From Escherichia phage vB_EcoM_EP57, in sequence record OR544956: a DNA stretch of 64,000 nt, one strand, 5' to 3'. Below, in pieces: positions 26,947 to 39,910 of this stretch. The notes under the pieces are model-generated. The model was not told where the DNA came from. It did no database searches and worked only from the letters and a program-made list of their open reading frames with translations. The translations under genes and the position numbers were made by a program. The first letter of the stretch is position 1. Each line of letters opens with the position of its first letter.

Positions 26947-28196
26947 ATGAAAGATTTGTACCAAGATGTTTTTTCTTTTTTAGATCGCACTTCAGAAACA
27001 TACACTAGAGAGAATGCAAACAAACCTTCCCACCTCGTTAACACACACAGGGATCTCTTGGCGGGGATTTTAAGCAAACATATGGCAATGACACAGATAC
27101 TGCCAAAAAACTTGTCAGAATGGCATACAGAAGGTTTTGGACATATTCACGACTTGGATTATCTGCTCTCTCCTCTTACAAACTGTTGTCTTGTTAATTA
27201 CCAAGATATGTTAGAAAATGGTTTTAAGATCGGTGCTGCACAGATAGAAAAACCAAAATCTATTGGAGTAGCTACCACAGTGCTAACTCAAATCATCCAA
27301 GCTGTAGCATCCAGTCAGTATGTCTGTTCCTTTGAACAAAGAAGTTACGGGATCAGCAGATGGTACTGTTACGAGTATGGGTTGTCGTTCCTTTTTGTCG
27401 TACTATGCCACCGAACAAGGAGAAAAATATGATGGACGATTCAACCTTGAGACATACCAAAGCATCTGAAAACCCTATTCTTTTCATGGAAGGGGCTTTA
27501 GCGCGTTTAAATGCCAATGATGAAATTGGTGTTTTGTTTGAAGATGGTTATGCTTCTATTAGTATTGGTTATGTAGGTCTTGCCGAAGCTTTGGAAATCC
27601 TTTATCCAGAAGAAAAAGATAAAAAGGAACTTGGTAAAAGCATTCTGCAACATATGAAAGATGTGTGTGCTGTGTTTAAAGAACGATCTAAGCTGGCGTT
27701 TAGTCTCTATGGAACTCCAGCAGAATCCTTGTGCTATAAGTTTGCAACAGCTTTAAATAAAAAATACCCAGGTTTGGTAGAAAGAGACTATCTTACTAAC
27801 TCTTTTCATCAACCTGTGTGGTTGGTAACAAATCCTTTTGAAAAATGGGATTATGAAGCAGGTTTTGCACAGATTAGTAATGGTGGTAACATAAGTTATG
27901 TCGAAACACCAAACTTAAAGAATAACTTAGAAGCTTTGGAGACTTTAGTAGACTACGCTTATGAACATATTCACTATTTTGGTATTAATCAGCCCGTGGA
28001 TCAATGCTTTAAGTGTGGTTTTCATGGGGAATTTAAGGCAACGGCTAAAGGGTTTGAGTGTCCTGATTGTGGCAACCATGAAGAAGAAACTATTTCTGTA
28101 GTTAGACGTGTATCAGGGTATCTTTCTGCCCCTAATTCACGGCCTTATAACAAAGGTAAAATGCAGGAAGTTTTGCAAAGGGAGAAACATCTTTGA
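26947..28196 (+). pseudogene. nrdD: anaerobic ribonucleotide reductase nrdD, disrupted
   Basis: RDLLAGI, HIHDLDY, MGCRSFL, glycine-radical RVSGY, C-terminal Zn ribbon; read across three frames and lacks central part. Confidence 0.75.
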
Positions 28197-29490: not shown

Positions 29491-30147
29491 ATGACCATTA
29501 AACATATCTCTTTTGATGTATGGAACACACTGATCACAGCAAACTCCAATTACGCAGACATGCGAGCCTGGACTATCGCAAAATATGGAGATATTACGGA
29601 AGTGGAAGCAAGAGCAACTTATAAGAAGATCAAAAAGGAACTGGATAATGCAGCACTTCAAGGCAAAGCCGAGTGTGCAGCATACGCCTGGGAAAGACTT
29701 GGTTCTGAATTTGGGATAACGCCTTGGAAGTCTGCAAAGCTTCGTTTCGAGTGTGAACAGTGGTTCCTTAAGTTTCCACCACACGTAGCCGTAGATCTGC
29801 CGATGTACTTGCTGTATCTTTCTGGGCGTTATGATTTGAGTATTAAGAGCAATACCAACTTCATATCAGGGGATATTCTGCGTCGTGCTTGTAAGTTTGA
29901 TAGTTGGAATTGTTTTGAGTTCACCCATTTCTCGGATGAAGCTTTACTTTGTAAACCAGATCCGCGATTCTTTGCTCGCACGCTCACGTATTCTCCGATC
30001 CCTCTGTTAGGGCACGAAGTGTTGCACGTAGGCGATAGTGAAGAATATGATGGAAAATGTGTTGACTTAGGGTTTAACTTCTGTCATATTAAGAACCCTA
30101 ACGACTTACTAGAGAAACTTAAAAGAGGAGAAATTGTAAATGCGTAA
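29491..30147 (+). CDS. HAD-superfamily phosphatase
   Basis: FDVWNTL, KPDP, GDSEEYD motifs. Confidence 0.6.
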   Translation: MTIKHISFDVWNTLITANSNYADMRAWTIAKYGDITEVEARATYKKIKKELDNAALQGKAECAAYAWERLGSEFGITPWKSAKLRFECEQWFLKFPPHVAVDLPMYLLYLSGRYDLSIKSNTNFISGDILRRACKFDSWNCFEFTHFSDEALLCKPDPRFFARTLTYSPIPLLGHEVLHVGDSEEYDGKCVDLGFNFCHIKNPNDLLEKLKRGEIVNA

Positions 30148-30967
30148 TCAAACTCAAATTTTTGCAAATAAATTTGATGACCTGGAAACTGCTACTTTTG
30201 ATATCCAAGATTATTCAAAATTGAAATTTGGTAGTAACCAAGCTGCGCGTCGTATGGGTAAAGAATTGGCACTTCAGTTTTTTGCTCAAGTGGCAATGAA
30301 ACATATTGGGGAACAATTTGTTATCATTCCTTCTCCTTACAACCATGTGTATAATGCTGCAACAATGATGACAGATCATTTTATTAATTACTTCAATATG
30401 TTGCAAGCACAATATGATCAAGGTCGTTCAGCAGAACTGGACATTATTCATCGTAAAGTTAGCTATATCAACGATTATGGTTTCTTGGATAAAGCTAGTC
30501 GTAAGAAACTTATTGATGGGGATACATTCTACTGTAACAAAGAATTCTGGGGGGATAAGAAGCTTGTATTCATTGATGATGTAAATATCACTGGAACGCA
30601 TGAAGACAAACTGATTGAGATCCTTAATGAAAATCAAGTTAAAAATGATGTTTACTTCCTGTATTTTGCAAAATATGAAGGTAATCAAGCAGATACCGAA
30701 GCTAAACTGAATTTTAACTACATTAATACACCGGAAGCGTTTGTTAAAATGATTAATGAAGAACGTGATGCACAGTGTCTTGTTCGTCCTATTAAGTATC
30801 TTATGGGCCAAAATCATGAAGACTTCAAAATCATTCTTAGCCAATTGCCACATTACTATGTAGAGCAACTTTTCTTTGGATGCTTGGGAGAAGGTTACAA
30901 CCGAATTTCAAAGTATGCTGAAAACTTTGAATTCTTGGATCGTTACACAAAACAACACATTCTGTAA
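30140..30967 (+). CDS. type-I phosphoribosyltransferase-like protein
   Basis: PRPP-binding motif LVFIDDVNITGTHE. Confidence 0.6.
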   Translation: MRNQTQIFANKFDDLETATFDIQDYSKLKFGSNQAARRMGKELALQFFAQVAMKHIGEQFVIIPSPYNHVYNAATMMTDHFINYFNMLQAQYDQGRSAELDIIHRKVSYINDYGFLDKASRKKLIDGDTFYCNKEFWGDKKLVFIDDVNITGTHEDKLIEILNENQVKNDVYFLYFAKYEGNQADTEAKLNFNYINTPEAFVKMINEERDAQCLVRPIKYLMGQNHEDFKIILSQLPHYYVEQLFFGCLGEGYNRISKYAENFEFLDRYTKQHIL

Positions 30968-30980
30968 TAAGGAGCTAAAA

Positions 30981-31454
30981 ATGCTTAAAATGAAAACAGG
31001 TAATCTTATTGATGCCGCTAAAGCAGGTGAAGTAACTGTTATTGCTCATTGTTGCAACTGTATGTGTAATATGGGGGCAGGTATTGCCCCACAAATCAAA
31101 CGAGCATTTCCTTACGCATATGCAGCAGACTTAGGCACAATGGCTGGTGATCAAAGTAAACTAGGTTGTTTTAGTTTAGGGGTGCCAGACGAACAATCAG
31201 ACCCTTTGGTATATAATCTATACGGGCAATACCGTTACGGATACAATGCTAAAGGTCGTCAGTTGGACTATGATGCACTTTACGATGCACTAATAGCTAT
31301 GGCTAACGATTTGCTTCTCCGTGACCAAAAATGTAAGATCGGCTTACCTATGATTGGCGCTGGATATGCTGGAGGTAATTGGGCTATCATCCAAGTGATG
31401 ATTGAAGAAACTTTAGTAAAAACAGGTTACGATGTGACTATTTATAAACTTTAA
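30981..31454 (+). CDS. macrodomain protein, TARG1/DarG-like
   Basis: IAHCCNCMCNMGAGIA and GLPMIGAGY..VTIYKL resemble TARG1. Confidence 0.65.
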   Translation: MLKMKTGNLIDAAKAGEVTVIAHCCNCMCNMGAGIAPQIKRAFPYAYAADLGTMAGDQSKLGCFSLGVPDEQSDPLVYNLYGQYRYGYNAKGRQLDYDALYDALIAMANDLLLRDQKCKIGLPMIGAGYAGGNWAIIQVMIEETLVKTGYDVTIYKL

Positions 31455-31767: not shown

Positions 31768-32686
31768 ATGCAACTTGGTTTCCCAATTATTGATGTAGTT
31801 GTTTTAGTTGGTATTTTAGCATTGTCTATTGGTATTGATTTCTTTGGTCACAAAGAAAATAAAGAAATTTCATTCAAATCCGCAGTTGGTTGGTCGATCT
31901 TTTGGATTGGTGTATCATTAGCTTATTATGGTTTTGTATACTTCCAACATGGTGCCGATTTTGCTAACTTGTTTTTAAGTGGATATGTGTTGGAAAAATC
32001 TTTGTCGGTAGATAACTTGGTAGTATTTGTAGCAGTATTCGCAAGTTTTGGTATTAAAAGCACACACTTGCAGCACAATAGGCACTTACTTGTTAAGTTT
32101 GGGCTGGTATGTTAATATCTTCTTCGGTGCGGTCATCCTTTTCTGTGCAGCTAAAATGGTATTTGCTGGAGATAATGACGCAGAAGTTGATTACTCTAAA
32201 CACTGGGCTACCCGTATTGTTCGTAAACTGTTCCCTGTATCTAATAAAATGGATGGGGAGAAGTTCTTCACAATCGAAAATGGTGTTCGTGTAGCAACTC
32301 CAGCTTTGGTTTGCGTATTCGTGATGGAAATGGTGGATGTAATCTTTGCAGTAGATTCGGTTCCAGCGGTGATCGCAGTGACACAAGAACCCCTGCTTGT
32401 ATTCTCTTCGATGTTATGTGCAATCTTAGGTCTACGTGCTCTGTTCTTTGTTCTTAGTGTCGCACTGAAGTATCTGGTTCACTTGGAGAAAGCAGTTATT
32501 GTGGTTCTGGTGTTTGTAGGCGTTAAACTGATGTATCACCCGTTTGCAGAAACATTGCATGAGAAAATGAGTTTCCTGCCAGCACATATTGATCCAACTA
32601 TTAGTATGTATATCGTGCTTGGTACTTTGGCCCTTGGTGTTATTGCAAGCTTTATCTTCCCTGAAAAAGAAGAAGCTACTGTTTAA
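31768..32686 (+). CDS. terC: TerC-family membrane protein, frameshifted
   Basis: LSVDNLVVF and QH motifs; ORFs 31768..32115 and 32048..32686. Confidence 0.65.
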
Positions 32687-33714: not shown

Positions 33715-34308
33715 ATGACAATTTCTATTCGTACTTCCATCGTAGGTGTTAAAAGGTTGCCTAATGCTTTGCAAATCACACGCGCTTTGAGGGATACATT
33801 CTCTGCTGTGGACGAGCATAAGATGCTTGATAATCTTTCAAATTGGCCCTATTTCCATTATTTTAAAAATGAAGATGACGAGTTTATAGACGCTGTTTCT
33901 TATGGTTATGATTTCGGTAAGGAGGTTTCTGCTGAAGAATTTGTAGCTATGGTGTTCCCAAACGGTTTGCCTACTCGCAGTAAACGTAAAAAAGGACCAA
34001 AAAACAAGAAACGTGCTACTAATAAAGCTACCATTTTCTTTACTGATGGCACACAATATACGATTAAAGATTTTGAAGAGGTATCTTATACAGCAGGTGG
34101 GAATCTTTCTTTCTACACCATCAAAAAACAAAACTCTACGTTCAGCCATGTTTCTAACATGATTGAAATGTTAGTAGAAGATATTGAAAGCGTAGCTGTG
34201 TTAGGTATGCATAAAAGCTTTTTAATTACAAATATTTCAGATTTCAGTGCAAGTTTATCTGGCCCTGATTTTGAAGCCACGACCACGCATTTCGCTTTTA
34301 AGGTGTAA
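33715..34308 (+). CDS. hypothetical protein (197 aa)
   Basis: ORF with AAGGAG RBS. Confidence 0.55.
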   Translation: MTISIRTSIVGVKRLPNALQITRALRDTFSAVDEHKMLDNLSNWPYFHYFKNEDDEFIDAVSYGYDFGKEVSAEEFVAMVFPNGLPTRSKRKKGPKNKKRATNKATIFFTDGTQYTIKDFEEVSYTAGGNLSFYTIKKQNSTFSHVSNMIEMLVEDIESVAVLGMHKSFLITNISDFSASLSGPDFEATTTHFAFKV

Positions 34309-34311
34309 GTT

Positions 34312-34902
34312 ATGCATACCGAGAGAGACTTGCAACTCTTGTGGTGGGAAGTGATGCAGGAAATAAAAGAAGATTTTCCTGTTTACTACAACATGTTACG
34401 TGAAGCAGGATATAAAGCTTGTGTTAGAAACAAAGTGAATAACTCTTTCGGTTGGTGCAACTACCGAGATAAAATTGTTGTTGTAAATTGGCACTTGCAT
34501 AAGAACTCCACAAGAGATATGATCGTGGATACAATGAAGCACGAAATTGCTCATGCTATTGATGGTTGTATGGGTAAGTTTAGTAGGCACGGTGCTCATT
34601 GGCAAAAACTGGCAGCAGAATTAGGGGCTAATCCTAAAGCCACTTCCAAAGAGCCGTTGAACCACGAATATAAATATGTTCTTGTTCTGGTAGATAGGTT
34701 TGCGACAAGATGTGTTAGAGGTTATAATCGTAAACCTAATCGCATGTACCCAGGTAAGCAACCTAATATGTGGTTGAAATCAGATAAAGAAGGGACCGAA
34801 GGAAAATTATGGTTGTATAAATGGGACGATTGGGTTAAAGTAGCTAAAGAGTACGGTGTTTCACCATATATAAGAGATGCAGAAGAGGAGAATGAAGAAT
34901 GA
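34312..34902 (+). CDS. SprT-like zinc metalloprotease
   Basis: HEIAHAI with downstream HG.HW. Confidence 0.55.
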   Translation: MHTERDLQLLWWEVMQEIKEDFPVYYNMLREAGYKACVRNKVNNSFGWCNYRDKIVVVNWHLHKNSTRDMIVDTMKHEIAHAIDGCMGKFSRHGAHWQKLAAELGANPKATSKEPLNHEYKYVLVLVDRFATRCVRGYNRKPNRMYPGKQPNMWLKSDKEGTEGKLWLYKWDDWVKVAKEYGVSPYIRDAEEENEE

Positions 34903-36011
34903 CAAGTCCATTTTTAAAAGCAGCTACTGGTGGTCAGAAGAAGCCTGAAATGAGCGTATTTGCTGCAACAACAGATGCAAGTAAATCTGTATTCGCTCCA
35001 AGCGTGTTAGATGCCAGTCCTGTTTATGCACCAGCGGCACCGCAAGAAGTTCCAGTTTTGCCTTCTATGACCCGACAAGAGATCGAAGAGATTGGGGCAG
35101 AGGCAGGAACAACCTTGCGTTCCTTGAATGCCGAGGTATTAAAACATCAACGTAGTAATCAAGGCGATCAGATGAGTGAACGACTCACAGCTTTGATTAA
35201 ACAGGCAAAACAACTTGATCCAAACTCTATTAAACAAAGCAAGGGTATTACTAAACTCATTAAAAAAGTTATGGGTATGAAAGAAGACCTGTTTGGGGAG
35301 TTTGATAATGTTAATAACCGTATTGAAGAGTTGGTAAAGAACCTTCAAATGGATATTCGCAAAGAAGAAGATTCCTTGGTATATCTTGAAAAGCTACATC
35401 AAGCTATTGGACAATATGCTGCAAGTTTGAACCGAGATATGCAGCTTCTAACAGCAACCTATGAAAAAGAAGAACAAGCTTTGGCTGCTCTTCCAGAAGA
35501 TGCAGTAGAACAGCGACAAGTGATCCGAGATACTTTGGATCTTCTGGAGATTCGTATTGCAGATTTAAAAGCATTGCGCCTACTGTGTGTCCAAATGGGA
35601 CCGCGTGTACAAGGTATGCAAAAAGTTTCTGCAAGCTTAATGCGATCTGCGCGTAACATAGTAAATAATGTTATTCCTGCTTACTCTGCTAACTTCTCAA
35701 TGTATATAGAGAGCTTACGTCAAATGAAAGCAGCAGAGACGCAGAATAACGTTCTTGATGAATTTAACCTGGCAATTAAACTGGGTAGCGATCTTGCCAC
35801 ACAGAATCAGATCGAAGCAGCAGCACTGGCTAACCGTCAAGTGTTGGATATTGAAACTCTGCGTCACGATCAGGAAAACTTGGTTAAGATGTTGGAAGAA
35901 ACTAACCGCATCAATACGGAAGCCCGTGCTGCTCGTGTTGATTATATTAATGAAGTTCAATCTCTGGAAGACGGGATGGTAGCTGCTGTGAAACGAGGGC
36001 TTGGTAAATGA
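34899..36011 (+). CDS. coiled-coil protein, possible TelA-like
   Basis: 370 aa helical protein in Ter context; assignment by size and composition. Confidence 0.35.
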   Translation: MTSPFLKAATGGQKKPEMSVFAATTDASKSVFAPSVLDASPVYAPAAPQEVPVLPSMTRQEIEEIGAEAGTTLRSLNAEVLKHQRSNQGDQMSERLTALIKQAKQLDPNSIKQSKGITKLIKKVMGMKEDLFGEFDNVNNRIEELVKNLQMDIRKEEDSLVYLEKLHQAIGQYAASLNRDMQLLTATYEKEEQALAALPEDAVEQRQVIRDTLDLLEIRIADLKALRLLCVQMGPRVQGMQKVSASLMRSARNIVNNVIPAYSANFSMYIESLRQMKAAETQNNVLDEFNLAIKLGSDLATQNQIEAAALANRQVLDIETLRHDQENLVKMLEETNRINTEARAARVDYINEVQSLEDGMVAAVKRGLGK

Positions 36012-36205
36012 GAATCCGTATCTATATAATTGATGAAGACATTGGTGTCCGTTATGATGACGAAAAACGATTCGCACCGATGGGAGGTATATATCCCCCA
36101 AGTGTTCTAGCAGTTTGTCGTGATTGTTATATTTATGAAGGTTGTCGTAACTTCCGTAAATTCGAACTCCTTGCAGATATTGACTTCAATGAGGAGGAGG
36201 AGTAA
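36008..36205 (+). CDS. hypothetical protein (65 aa)
   Basis: ORF. Confidence 0.45.
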   Translation: MRIRIYIIDEDIGVRYDDEKRFAPMGGIYPPSVLAVCRDCYIYEGCRNFRKFELLADIDFNEEEE

Positions 36206-36378
36206 TGAAAATATTACGAGTGAATATTGAAACTGCTTGGTGTGGATGCAATGAGGTTGTGGATATCGAAATTGAAGATGATATGTCTCAAGAGGATATA
36301 GAAGATCTTGCGCACGAAACCTTTCAGGATTATTGTAATTACGGGTTCCATATTTTAGAGGAGGAAGAAGATGTTTAA
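36205..36378 (+). CDS. small acidic protein (57 aa)
   Basis: hand-found ORF, GAGGAGGAGG RBS. Confidence 0.4.
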   Translation: MKILRVNIETAWCGCNEVVDIEIEDDMSQEDIEDLAHETFQDYCNYGFHILEEEEDV

Positions 36379-36546
36379 TTGACTCGACAGGAACTGATCA
36401 CAATCATTGAAGATGCTTTTATTGATGGCTGGAATACACAAGATAATGACTGGGGTGGACCCGAAGCTTTTCTGGAACATCATAAAACTTATGGAGACTC
36501 TTGTGAAACCACTGTAGCTCTTGATAATCTGAAGGAGGGTTTGTAA
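36379..36546 (+). CDS. small hypothetical protein (55 aa)
   Basis: hand-found ORF, TTG start. Confidence 0.3.
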   Translation: MTRQELITIIEDAFIDGWNTQDNDWGGPEAFLEHHKTYGDSCETTVALDNLKEGL

Positions 36547-37109
36547 TGGGTTGTTTTAGCTTTTTGTGCAAAGAATCGGGCAAAGCTGCCCTTTCTACTT
36601 CTTTCGACGGATCACCTTGCTACCTCTTTCTTTTGAAGGACGGTGTTGTTATTGAAGAGATGTATGGCAACTATGATAGTTATGGTTGTGTTTTCTCTGG
36701 AAAGGAGGATGAAAACGGCGTTCGTGAACGATTTGAATGGGCTATGGATTGGGGTAAGGTTTGTGATTTGATGCATTCCTCAAATCCAAGGGACGGTATC
36801 GCTATGGTGCTGGAAGAGTACTTTACAGGTGAAATCCCTACAGAACAATCTGACGGAGATCCTAACCAAGGTTGGGGTGATGGTGAAGAAGATCCAGATT
36901 GTTTTTTCAGCACAGAAAAGAATAAGTTTAAACGTGTTGACAACCCTTATCACAAAGTGCATAATACTCTCATTGAAACAGAAGATGACAAGATGGAAAT
37001 TGAAGAAGATGATCCTCTTGTAACACTTCCTGTAAGTGAGTTACAAAAGATCACTAAGGAAGCTTACGATTTGGGCTTCAAAATTGGTAGAGGAGGTATG
37101 CGTGTTTAG
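36546..37109 (+). CDS. acidic hypothetical protein (187 aa)
   Basis: ORF. Confidence 0.55.
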   Translation: MGCFSFLCKESGKAALSTSFDGSPCYLFLLKDGVVIEEMYGNYDSYGCVFSGKEDENGVRERFEWAMDWGKVCDLMHSSNPRDGIAMVLEEYFTGEIPTEQSDGDPNQGWGDGEEDPDCFFSTEKNKFKRVDNPYHKVHNTLIETEDDKMEIEEDDPLVTLPVSELQKITKEAYDLGFKIGRGGMRV

Positions 37110-37380
37110 ATTCAATATTCAAGAAGAAAAAAGTCAGGATTTACCTATTGCTTTCGAAGATCTTGACGTAGGGGCCACATTCATGTATTATGATGCCTAT
37201 GAAGACGCAGGGTTGGATACCTACCGTAACTTGGTGTTCATTAAAAATTCCACAAACAGTGCGATCTGTATTAATGGATCACTAGCACAACGAGGCTATA
37301 CTCATTGCATCCCACCAGATACAAATATGGTGGAAGTAGATTTAGAAGTTACCAATATTACACTTAAGAAGGAGAAATAA
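37102..37380 (+). CDS. small protein, paralog family member A (92 aa)
   Basis: GTG after GAGGAGG; paralog of 38402..38671. Confidence 0.5.
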   Translation: MFRFNIQEEKSQDLPIAFEDLDVGATFMYYDAYEDAGLDTYRNLVFIKNSTNSAICINGSLAQRGYTHCIPPDTNMVEVDLEVTNITLKKEK

Positions 37381-37381
37381 T

Positions 37382-38176
37382 ATGTCCGAGAAAATCAGCC
37401 TGAAAAAACGTCAAGAAAACCTTGCTTTCTCTCTGAAAAAGAATAAGAACCTGAATGAAGGTAAGATTGTTCTTCGTGTAGCATGTGCTCTAGATATTTC
37501 TGGTAGTATGCATGGTCTATATTCTAGTGGGGTAGTGAGTGATTTTGTAGGTAAACTGCTTCCTTTTGGTATGCTGTTCGACGATAATCAACAAATTGAT
37601 ATGTGGGCCTTCAATACGAGTTCCCAAGAGCTTACTCCAGCAACAGCAGATGTTTACGATGACTATGTTGGTAAATGTATGCGTAATGTTCGTATCGGAG
37701 GTGGAACAAATTACGCCCCTGTAATGGCGGATATCTACGATGAGTATTTTGGCACTGTTACTAAATATATTACCACTAAACAAGTGGTACAAGAGGAGGC
37801 TCCAAAGAAAGGTTTCTTTAATCGTCTACTTGGTAAAACTGAAACAGTATCTGTAGAGCGTGAAAAGGTCGTAGCTGTATCTGAACCAGGTGCTGACGTT
37901 ACCCCTGGTGTTGTATTCTTCCAGACAGACGGTGAGAATGGTGATCCTAGTGCTGTTCGTCGTCTTATCGAAGAGAATAAGAATAAACCTATTTATTGGT
38001 TCATGGTTGGCGTTGGTAATGAGAAGTTTGGCTTCCTGAAAGAACTGGCAAATGCTTATGATAATGTTGGTTTTATTGGCATTAAAGATTTAGACTTGAC
38101 AGATTCAGAGCTTTATGACAAACTCTTATCTGAAGAGTTCGGAGAGTGGGTTGTTAAAGTAGGTGCTAAAAAATGA
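37382..38176 (+). CDS. vWA-domain protein, TerY-like
   Basis: MIDAS motif DISGSM; TerD-like N-terminus ISLKK. Confidence 0.65.
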   Translation: MSEKISLKKRQENLAFSLKKNKNLNEGKIVLRVACALDISGSMHGLYSSGVVSDFVGKLLPFGMLFDDNQQIDMWAFNTSSQELTPATADVYDDYVGKCMRNVRIGGGTNYAPVMADIYDEYFGTVTKYITTKQVVQEEAPKKGFFNRLLGKTETVSVEREKVVAVSEPGADVTPGVVFFQTDGENGDPSAVRRLIEENKNKPIYWFMVGVGNEKFGFLKELANAYDNVGFIGIKDLDLTDSELYDKLLSEEFGEWVVKVGAKK

Positions 38177-38421
38177 TCGACGAGCTTGCCTCTCAAGTCA
38201 TAGAAAATTATTGGCGCGAGAGAGAAGCTTTCATTATGCGCAGTCTCAAAGAGTATTTCATTGGGACTGTGCGAATGGAAGATATTGTAAGTAGAGTAGA
38301 GATTCATGTATGGCCCGATTATGAAGAATGGGTTGACAAAGAAAATGAAAATGCTATAATTCTTCGTATATACAAACCGGAGATAACATTAGGAGGAAGA
38401 AGTGTTAAACTTCGAAATTGA
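38173..38421 (+). CDS. hypothetical protein (82 aa)
   Basis: ORF. Confidence 0.5.
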   Translation: MIDELASQVIENYWREREAFIMRSLKEYFIGTVRMEDIVSRVEIHVWPDYEEWVDKENENAIILRIYKPEITLGGRSVKLRN

Positions 38422-38671
38422 TGAGCAAAAAGTAAATAAACGATGCCTTACCATTAAAGATTTGGATGTAGGAGATACTTTCGTCTATGAAAATGCATTT
38501 GACGAAAATGGTTTAGACCTTAGTGAAATCATTGTTTATTTAAAAGTAGATGATGGGGAAAATGATTATTCTGCTGTAGAACTAAACCATCATGCACAAT
38601 TAGTATCAATCCAAAACACATCTAAGCTTTTGGAAGTAGAATTGACTGTAACTGGTATTACACTTAAATAA
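38402..38671 (+). CDS. small protein, paralog family member B (89 aa)
   Basis: GTG after AGGAGGAAG; shares DLDVG.TF.Y..A.D..GLD and EV.L.VT.ITLK. Confidence 0.5.
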   Translation: MLNFEIDEQKVNKRCLTIKDLDVGDTFVYENAFDENGLDLSEIIVYLKVDDGENDYSAVELNHHAQLVSIQNTSKLLEVELTVTGITLK

Positions 38672-38686
38672 TAGAGGAGACAAAAG

Positions 38687-39289
38687 ATGACTGATAAAAT
38701 TTCCCTGAAAAAAGGCTCTAGCGAAAAAATTTCCCTGAAGAAAGTTGCTCCGGCTCTGAAAGAACTACGCCTGGAATTCTCTTGGAAATCTGATTCTAAA
38801 CTAGATCTGGATGTAAGTGCACTGGTTTGTCGTCACAATGCCGCTGGCAATCCTGAAATGCTGTCTGCACGTCATCTGGTTTGCTATGCTAACAAGTTTG
38901 ATCCTGAACGTTCTACCTTCGCTGGTGACGATGTTCGTGATGGAACTGGCAGCATGGAGCAGATTGATATTACTCTGGCTAAAATCTCTCCTGATGCACA
39001 AGAGATTGCCTTTGTTCTGACCATTGATGATGATACAGGTCTGAAACGTTTTGGTCATGCTTCTGAAGGTATGCTTAAAATCTTCGACTCCGAGCGCAAT
39101 GTGGAAATTCTGGATTTTGACTTCCTGGCTCCTGAAGTAGCTGGCAACACAATCTGCCACGTGGCTTCCTTGGTTCGTGAAGATGGGGAATGGAAGCTGA
39201 AAGCATATGGTGTAGGTAAAGCTGGTCTGGATATTTGTGATGTGGTGATGGCCTTCGGTGGTAAAAAAGAATGGTATGAATGTCCGTAA
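38687..39289 (+). CDS. terD: TerD-family stress protein
   Basis: ISLKKG repeats, LDLDVSAL, GDDVRDGTG, GEWKLKAYGVG; highly optimised codons. Confidence 0.8.
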   Translation: MTDKISLKKGSSEKISLKKVAPALKELRLEFSWKSDSKLDLDVSALVCRHNAAGNPEMLSARHLVCYANKFDPERSTFAGDDVRDGTGSMEQIDITLAKISPDAQEIAFVLTIDDDTGLKRFGHASEGMLKIFDSERNVEILDFDFLAPEVAGNTICHVASLVREDGEWKLKAYGVGKAGLDICDVVMAFGGKKEWYECP

Positions 39290-39307
39290 TAATTAACAAA
39301 TGATTTT

Positions 39308-39330
39308 GAGGGGGAGAAATCCCCCTCTTG
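39308..39330 (+). terminator. hairpin, possible weak terminator
   Basis: GAGGGGG-AGAAAT-CCCCCTC, short U-tract. Confidence 0.35.
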
Positions 39331-39356
39331 CAATAAAGCCTCTATCGTGTTATACT
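39328..39356 (+). promoter_or_regulatory. sigma70-type promoter
   Basis: TTGCAA-N17-TATACT upstream of 39389. Confidence 0.5.
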
Positions 39357-39388
39357 AGAAATTCGTTAACTTAAAAAGGAGGCAAAAT

Positions 39389-39910
39389 TTGCTGATAAAA
39401 AACTTTGTAACAGTTGCGTTACTATCCTTAACTGCTTTTACATTTACACCTGTTGTGGCGAAAGCCGAAGCTGCAAACGTAAAAACCGCTAAAGTAGTTC
39501 ACAAATGTACAAAGCAATATAATGATAAAATTCTATTAGCTTGTGCAATTTACGCAGAAGGTCGCGGTCTGGGTAAAAAAGGAATGAATGCCGTTGGGAA
39601 TGTGGTAATCAACAGAAGAAATGATACCTACTTCCCTAACACAGTCAGAGGAGTCTTGTTCCAGAAAGGGCAATTCTCATATGCGAAAACTTTTAACGTA
39701 ACAGAGAAAGATAAGTGGCAGGAAGCAAAAGCAATAGCGGAGCGTTTACTTTATTTAGAGAAACATTTTCCTGAATTGCGGTCTGTTTTAGATGTTACTA
39801 AAGGTGCTCTATACTTCAAGAAACGGAATATAAGAACACACTGGGAACGTGATATGCGTCTTGTTTATCGAGATAAAGTGCATGGTTTCTATCTACCAAA
39901 GGGGAGTTAA
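39389..39910 (+). CDS. secreted SleB/CwlJ-like cell-wall hydrolase
   Basis: signal peptide; AIYAEGRG..VGNVVINR. Confidence 0.6.
   Translation: MLIKNFVTVALLSLTAFTFTPVVAKAEAANVKTAKVVHKCTKQYNDKILLACAIYAEGRGLGKKGMNAVGNVVINRRNDTYFPNTVRGVLFQKGQFSYAKTFNVTEKDKWQEAKAIAERLLYLEKHFPELRSVLDVTKGALYFKKRNIRTHWERDMRLVYRDKVHGFYLPKGS

Follow-up and report, generated by a model that had tools for sequence, protein, structure and literature searches.

A family of small, predicted SH3-like proteins linked to the vWA and TerD genes of Stephanstirmvirinae phages

Two small ORFs, called A and B below, are paralogous members of a narrow protein family whose genes adjoin the vWA and TerD genes of phage-borne Ter clusters, and the data support a functional tie between this family and the vWA/TerD pair. 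They were analysed in a 64,000-nucleotide stretch of the genome of Escherichia phage vB_EcoM_EP57 (OR544956), referred to as the window. In the reading that we tentatively prefer, and which is quite possibly correct, A and B are lineage-specific, non-essential accessory subunits (adaptors or modulators) of the phage vWA/TerD module, with a probably SH3-like fold, and each of them would be produced together with the product of the downstream gene.

The window harbours a full Ter-type cluster, with PRTase, HAD, TerC, SprT, TelA, vWA-TerF-like and TerD genes (Table 1). The region from 34300 to 39400 displays 99% identity to some 60 Phapecoctavirus genomes (Stephanstirmvirinae) besides those of Escherichia phage tuntematon and phAPEC8, and A and B are both labelled 'hypothetical protein' in these near-identical records. 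The gene order is SprT-like, TelA, three tiny ORFs, a 187-aa ORF, A, vWA-TerF-like, an 82-aa ORF, B, TerD and a SleB-like hydrolase, and the genes surrounding A and B are all located on the + strand, tightly packed or overlapping. The vWA-TerF-like protein contains a DISGS sequence that fits the DxSxS pattern of the vWA MIDAS. The last 8 nt of the 187-aa ORF are shared with the start of A; this ORF is kept upstream of A in phi92 (gp175) and is missing from that position in phiWec179, its place being taken by a 132-aa ORF and a short gap. The upstream genes located between 29491 and 32686 are in keeping with a proposal that Ter systems include a module for the biosynthesis of a 'nucleoside-like signal'. 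The locus thus belongs with the fairly complete Ter systems carried by phages, of which examples from other phages have already been described (PMC7824862; phiKp34). Outside of the cluster, a 278-aa ORF (27360-28196) matches only the C-terminal part of NrdD, the anaerobic ribonucleotide reductase, including the glycyl-radical domain (positions 316-562 of the 562 in the profile), and the gene may be split or interrupted upstream.

Table 1. Coordinates of the genes and promoter-like sites of the Ter region in the window
Feature	Coordinates	Strand	Remarks
HAD-like, weak	29491-30147	+	
PRTase ComF-like	30140-30967	+	PF15610, E=7e-42
Macro-like, weak	30876-31454	+	
TerC	32048-32686	+	
SprT-like	34312-34902	+	
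TelA	34899-36011	+	Pfam PF05816, E=3e-33; in the same tightly packed array
187-aa acidic ORF	36546-37109	+	phrog_14928, function unknown; cysteine-rich N-terminus
Promoter-like site TTGACA-17-CATAAT, 11/12	36937-36965	+	within the 187-aa ORF; 137 nt 5' of A; consensus match only
Small ORF A, 92 aa, pI 4.4	37102-37380	+	phrog_11278; 'A-type' copy, directly upstream of vWA
vWA-TerF-like, 264 aa	37382-38176	+	Pfam PF10138, E=1.6e-37; directly 3' of A
82-aa ORF between vWA and B	38173-38421	+	phrog_22387, function unknown; not a member of the small-ORF family
Perfect sigma-70 consensus promoter TTGACA-16-TATAAT with TG extension	38333-38360	+	within the 3' end of the 82-aa ORF; 42 nt 5' of B
Small ORF B, 89 aa, pI 4.3	38402-38671	+	phrog_11278; 'B-type' copy, paralog of A, directly upstream of TerD
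TerD-domain protein, 200 aa	38687-39289	+	Pfam PF02342, E=3.2e-28; directly 3' of B

Both small ORFs start with GTG. The start codon of A (37102) lies 5 nt downstream of a GAGGAGG sequence and its stop codon is at 37378-37380; that of B (38402) is preceded by AGGAGG, with the stop codon at 38669-38671. The original prediction, made from the DNA alone, had described them as clear paralogs of about 90 aa each. This was borne out by formal pairwise alignment, BLASTP aligning A and B over their full length with significant similarity (34% identity, E=2e-14), and the two motifs that had been proposed as common to both proteins are present in this alignment. Both also belong to the same PHROG, since the phrog_11278 HMM matches residues 1-92 of A on profile positions 1-92 (E=4.2e-51) and residues 1-89 of B on positions 1-89 (E=7e-45). 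B carries a short acidic insertion (DDGENDY) and is devoid of the KKEK tail found at the C-terminus of A. The dN/dS ratios between orthologs range from 0.14 to 0.33 (Nei-Gojobori), from which we conclude that A and B are real protein-coding genes. A search with the family HMM detected no third copy elsewhere in the 64 kb window. The possibility that the 82-aa ORF and B form a segmental duplicate of the 187-aa ORF and A was considered and rejected: the 82-aa and 187-aa proteins are dissimilar (E=0.056) and the upstream DNA gave no meaningful alignment.

The proteins of the family are acidic (pI 4.3-5.5) and gave no sequence match in Pfam, NCBIfam, PADLOC or the PDB. When the PADLOC models were compared with A, B, the 82-aa ORF, the 187-aa ORF, vWA and TerD, no match was obtained at E values up to 0.1. 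phrog_11278 itself carries no annotation of function, fold or context. Positions F4, G24, T26, F27, G37, L38, K48, A54, N58 and L81 are invariant or nearly so, followed closely by D39. In a 16-sequence alignment these positions include neither Cys nor His, which points to a binding module rather than an enzyme. An AlphaFold model built from the same 16 sequences (pLDDT 86.4, pTM 0.73; a shallow alignment of 8 near-identical sequences gave a pLDDT of only 38) consists of several short strands and one short helix, and the model of A agrees with the BFVD model of the B ortholog of phAPEC8 (TM 0.72-0.74, E=2e-6). The predicted fold is probably an SH3-like beta-barrel, the closest candidates among known folds being SH3-like small beta-barrels such as the ribosomal L2 C-terminal domain, EF-P domain I / KOW, Tudor, FeoA and the DtxR C-terminal domain. 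Membership of A and B in the TerD family (PF02342) was rejected, as no Pfam match was obtained and the predicted model is not a sandwich.

The family shares a local motif, L..G(D/E)T..Y..A.D..G, with the Ig-like repeats of giant surface proteins (He_PIG, DUF11, HYR). However, each repeat matches over no more than about 16-50 residues, and the family is modelled as a barrel instead of an Ig sandwich. Profile matches to giant repeat proteins of the He_PIG, DUF11, HYR and ankyrin types were therefore rejected as artefacts of summed short motifs, and weak matches to antibody VH framework 3 were discarded as the same motif-level artefact. By summing many matches of 16-50 residues, the family profile reaches an E value of 1e-26 against giant proteins with Ig-like or ankyrin repeats, which calls for caution in profile searches with short proteins.

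In the phage collection, members of the family were found in 126 records, belonging to Phapecoctavirus, Justusliebigvirus and a few unclassified Stephanstirmvirinae. The vWA-TerF gene is more widespread, with 209 records, among them phages of Caulobacter, Pseudomonas, Rhizobium, Brevundimonas and Acinetobacter in which the family is absent; the genus counts of the 126 records fit inside those of the 209, and 83 of the 209 vWA-bearing records have no small ORF. Several records under other names (Campylobacter phages B15, A150, A110a and A145, Acinetobacter phage vB_AbaM_ABPW7, Pseudomonas phage PsgM04F and 'Dompiswa phage') proved near-identical to the genomes of E. coli Phapecoctavirus or Justusliebigvirus, and their host labels seem doubtful, possibly reflecting contamination or mis-assignment. 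Word-indexed searches recovered few relatives. A profile search of 1.84 billion representatives retrieved about 17 small proteins (54-93 aa) that mostly matched over their full length, and every match with a retrievable context was located on a phage-like contig. Co-occurrence in bacterial ter loci, one of the checks named in the original prediction, was not found among the matches of this search whose context could be read. Further scans of IMG/VR and JGI metagenomes yielded no additional members, and two IMG/VR loci were discarded as spurious motif matches (L004 and L018; an HD-domain protein and a tail-fibre-like protein).

All 16 distinct member-bearing loci examined (16/16) adjoin vWA and/or TerD; these loci (L001-L003, L005-L012, L016, L019, L020 and the window, with L017 being the same contig as L016) are all collinear relatives and not independent samples. 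Their arrangement varies. Two copies are found in phiWec179 and PsgM04F, as in the window. A single copy precedes vWA and TerD in phi92 (gp174-gp173-gp172) and in Klebsiella phage 05F01, as well as in contig L019, which has kept TerD and a homolog of the 82-aa ORF and has no B. Distant metagenomic relatives, with 25-32% identity (L006, L007, L008-L010, L012), possess one copy between vWA and TerD. The distant homologs come from seven contigs and represent six distinct proteins, and the order vWA, small ORF, TerD was observed on all five contigs with upstream sequence (5/5), whereas the truncated contigs L011 and L020 show the small ORF followed by TerD. Three copies occur at positions 4728-6582 of L016, a metagenomic Phapecoctavirus-like contig (Logan SRR12532581_45690), in the order A'-A-vWA-80aa-B-TerD, where the tandem copies upstream of vWA are 50% identical to each other. 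Finally, two phages from within the subfamily, Citrobacter phage Tr1 and Klebsiella phage KP13-16, have no copy and retain vWA with one or two TerD genes; a 110-aa ORF upstream of vWA in KP13-16 was rejected as a member (E=7). Copy number varies between 0 and 3, irrespective of how many vWA or TerD genes are present. The family is 43-52% identical between phages whose vWA proteins are 73% identical. A neighbour-joining tree separates the distant group located between vWA and TerD, a B clade and an A clade, which suggests duplication within Stephanstirmvirinae followed by differential loss, although a tree built on about 90 residues without bootstrap is only indicative.

Because the linkage to the vWA/TerD pair holds at 25-32% identity and after relocation, duplication and triplication, we consider it to be conserved. 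The original prediction of a conserved pairing with vWA and TerD is upheld in this sense, but the pairing is not obligate, as illustrated by Tr1, KP13-16 and L019. The further proposal of a partner or chaperone dedicated to TerD-fold proteins was not supported: the vWA protein does not have a TerD fold (PF10138), the family occurs in 126 records against 209 for vWA, and relatives without any copy exist. Being phage-restricted, dispensable and independent in copy number of TerD and vWA, the family is not a dedicated or obligate chaperone. Nor does it behave as a core Ter component, judging by the profile search for bacterial ter/tel loci and by the phage collection for Ter-bearing phages. Its adjacency to vWA and TerD may partly reflect shared ancestry rather than functional coupling, since all the phages are collinear from TelA to the SleB-like hydrolase.

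The positions of A directly upstream of vWA and of B directly upstream of TerD had been correctly placed in the original prediction, in which both pairs were also said to be translationally coupled. For A and vWA this is plausible: a single nucleotide separates the stop codon of A from the vWA ATG (37382), and the C-terminal KKEK codons of A encode AAGGAG, the Shine-Dalgarno sequence of vWA. A tail of the KKEK type is present in the copies that precede vWA and absent from those that precede TerD. B and TerD do not overlap, the stop codon of B being located 15 nt before the TerD ATG (38687) with TerD's own GAGGAG in the spacer. B itself overlaps the upstream 82-aa ORF by 20 nt, and in distant phages the small ORF is followed by spacers of 11-35 nt. 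Tight spacing is not special to the two pairs, since the whole array from SprT (34312) to TerD is equally compact or overlapping.

The site located upstream of B is the only perfect sigma-70 match in the 64 kb window, where 0.04 would be expected. phiWec179, PsgM04F and L016 have it in the corresponding place, although their B is only about 43% identical, and it is the predicted start of a B-TerD transcription unit. The 11/12 site upstream of A is also found in phi92 (L001) and PsgM04F (L005). Weaker sites (10/12) precede the small ORF in distant contigs, and one such site precedes TerD in phi92. No terminator-like site was seen between A and vWA or between B and TerD. Together with the promoter motifs, this makes co-transcription of A with vWA and of B with TerD likely. 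The conserved perfect promoter suggests that TerD would be strongly expressed by the host RNA polymerase, probably early in infection.

Several explanations can be proposed for these observations. The main rival, which we regard as less likely than accessory subunits while taking it seriously, is that A and B are functionally independent small early proteins, involved for instance in host takeover or anti-defence, and present in the Ter region by descent only. They are indeed small, acidic and phage-restricted, with 0-3 fast-diverging copies, as is typically seen for genes engaged in an arms race; B is preceded by a perfect host-type promoter of its own, in related phages vWA and TerD do without the family, and all loci are collinear over many kilobases. 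However, the family is never found away from vWA/TerD, even when it changes side or is duplicated, no terminator-like site separates the small ORFs from the downstream gene, and no member matches PADLOC or another known family. It is improbable that A and B are simple leader cistrons that would set the translation of the downstream Ter genes by coupling, their peptides mattering little. The 1-nt gap between A and vWA, the vWA Shine-Dalgarno inside A, the KKEK-type tail of the copies preceding vWA and the position of B as the first cistron after a strong promoter are all compatible with such a role. On the other hand, sequence, length and a confidently predicted fold are kept down to about 25% identity, with dN/dS ratios of 0.14-0.33, and this combination of purifying selection and conserved fold makes a pure leader role unlikely. 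In addition, B and TerD are 15 nt apart and TerD has its own Shine-Dalgarno, the distant spacers measure 11-35 nt, and phi92, Tr1 and KP13-16 express vWA and TerD with no leader of this kind. There is a similarly small chance that A and B would be metal-responsive modules of the FeoA/DtxR SH3-like type, which would sense divalent cations or deliver them to the vWA MIDAS or to the Ca2+ sites of TerD. This putative role rests on weak structural matches, and no sequence match was found between the family and the FeoA profile (PF04023).

According to our preferred reading as accessory subunits, A and the vWA-TerF-like protein would be produced from one transcript and B and TerD from another. A and B may then act as protein-binding adaptors or modulators of the vWA/TerD assembly, as their genomic context suggests, and could thereby influence Ter function. 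In PMC7824862, the Aravind group proposes that vWA/TerD assemblies are sub-membrane, metal- or ligand-sensing structures, involved in phage superinfection exclusion or stress protection. The only feature that we found to be common to the otherwise unrelated vWA and TerD proteins is an N-terminal tandem K[IV]SLKK motif (MSEKISLKK...SLKK and MTDKISLKK...KISLKK; window positions 37382-37450 and 38687-38760). It is kept in all lineages examined (loci L001-L015), including phages without a small ORF, and its designation as a common docking peptide is therefore speculative. It is conceivable, if rather doubtful, that the small proteins are phage-specific SH3-like Ter subunits that dock on the K[IV]SLKK motif of TerD and TerF-type vWA proteins and control where or when these assemble; their 0-3 diverging copies would then reflect an arms race, in which, for instance, superinfection exclusion is tuned or a Ter-targeting host factor is evaded.

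Phenotypes of tellurite, colicin and phage resistance have long been reported for the Ter system (TerD, TerF/TerY vWA, TelA, TerC), and phage-borne Ter stress-response clusters (TelA, TerC, TerD, TerF-vWA, PRTase, HAD) are said to have been described by Anantharaman, Iyer and Aravind in 2012. The phage-borne clusters presented in PMC7824862 have the same gene set as the window, in which the small ORFs are embedded, and these were found nowhere else. As opposed to that gene set, the small family is absent from the Ter components listed in the text consulted, and from many Ter-bearing phages. We found no paper that mentions the family. What is already known is thus its existence as a PHROG of unknown function and the existence of phage Ter clusters; what is new is the predicted SH3-like fold, the exclusive but non-obligate linkage to vWA/TerD, the variation from 0 to 3 copies and the conserved strong promoter.

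The finding is a modest lead into Ter biology rather than a surprising one, and its impact is probably limited to Stephanstirmvirinae-like phages because the family is narrow and dispensable. Nevertheless, a small protein tied exclusively to vWA/TerD could serve as a bait for pull-down of the complex, or could be a natural modulator with a deletion phenotype. If docking on the K[IV]SLKK motif proved to be true, the family would provide a first handle on the regulation of TerD and vWA proteins.
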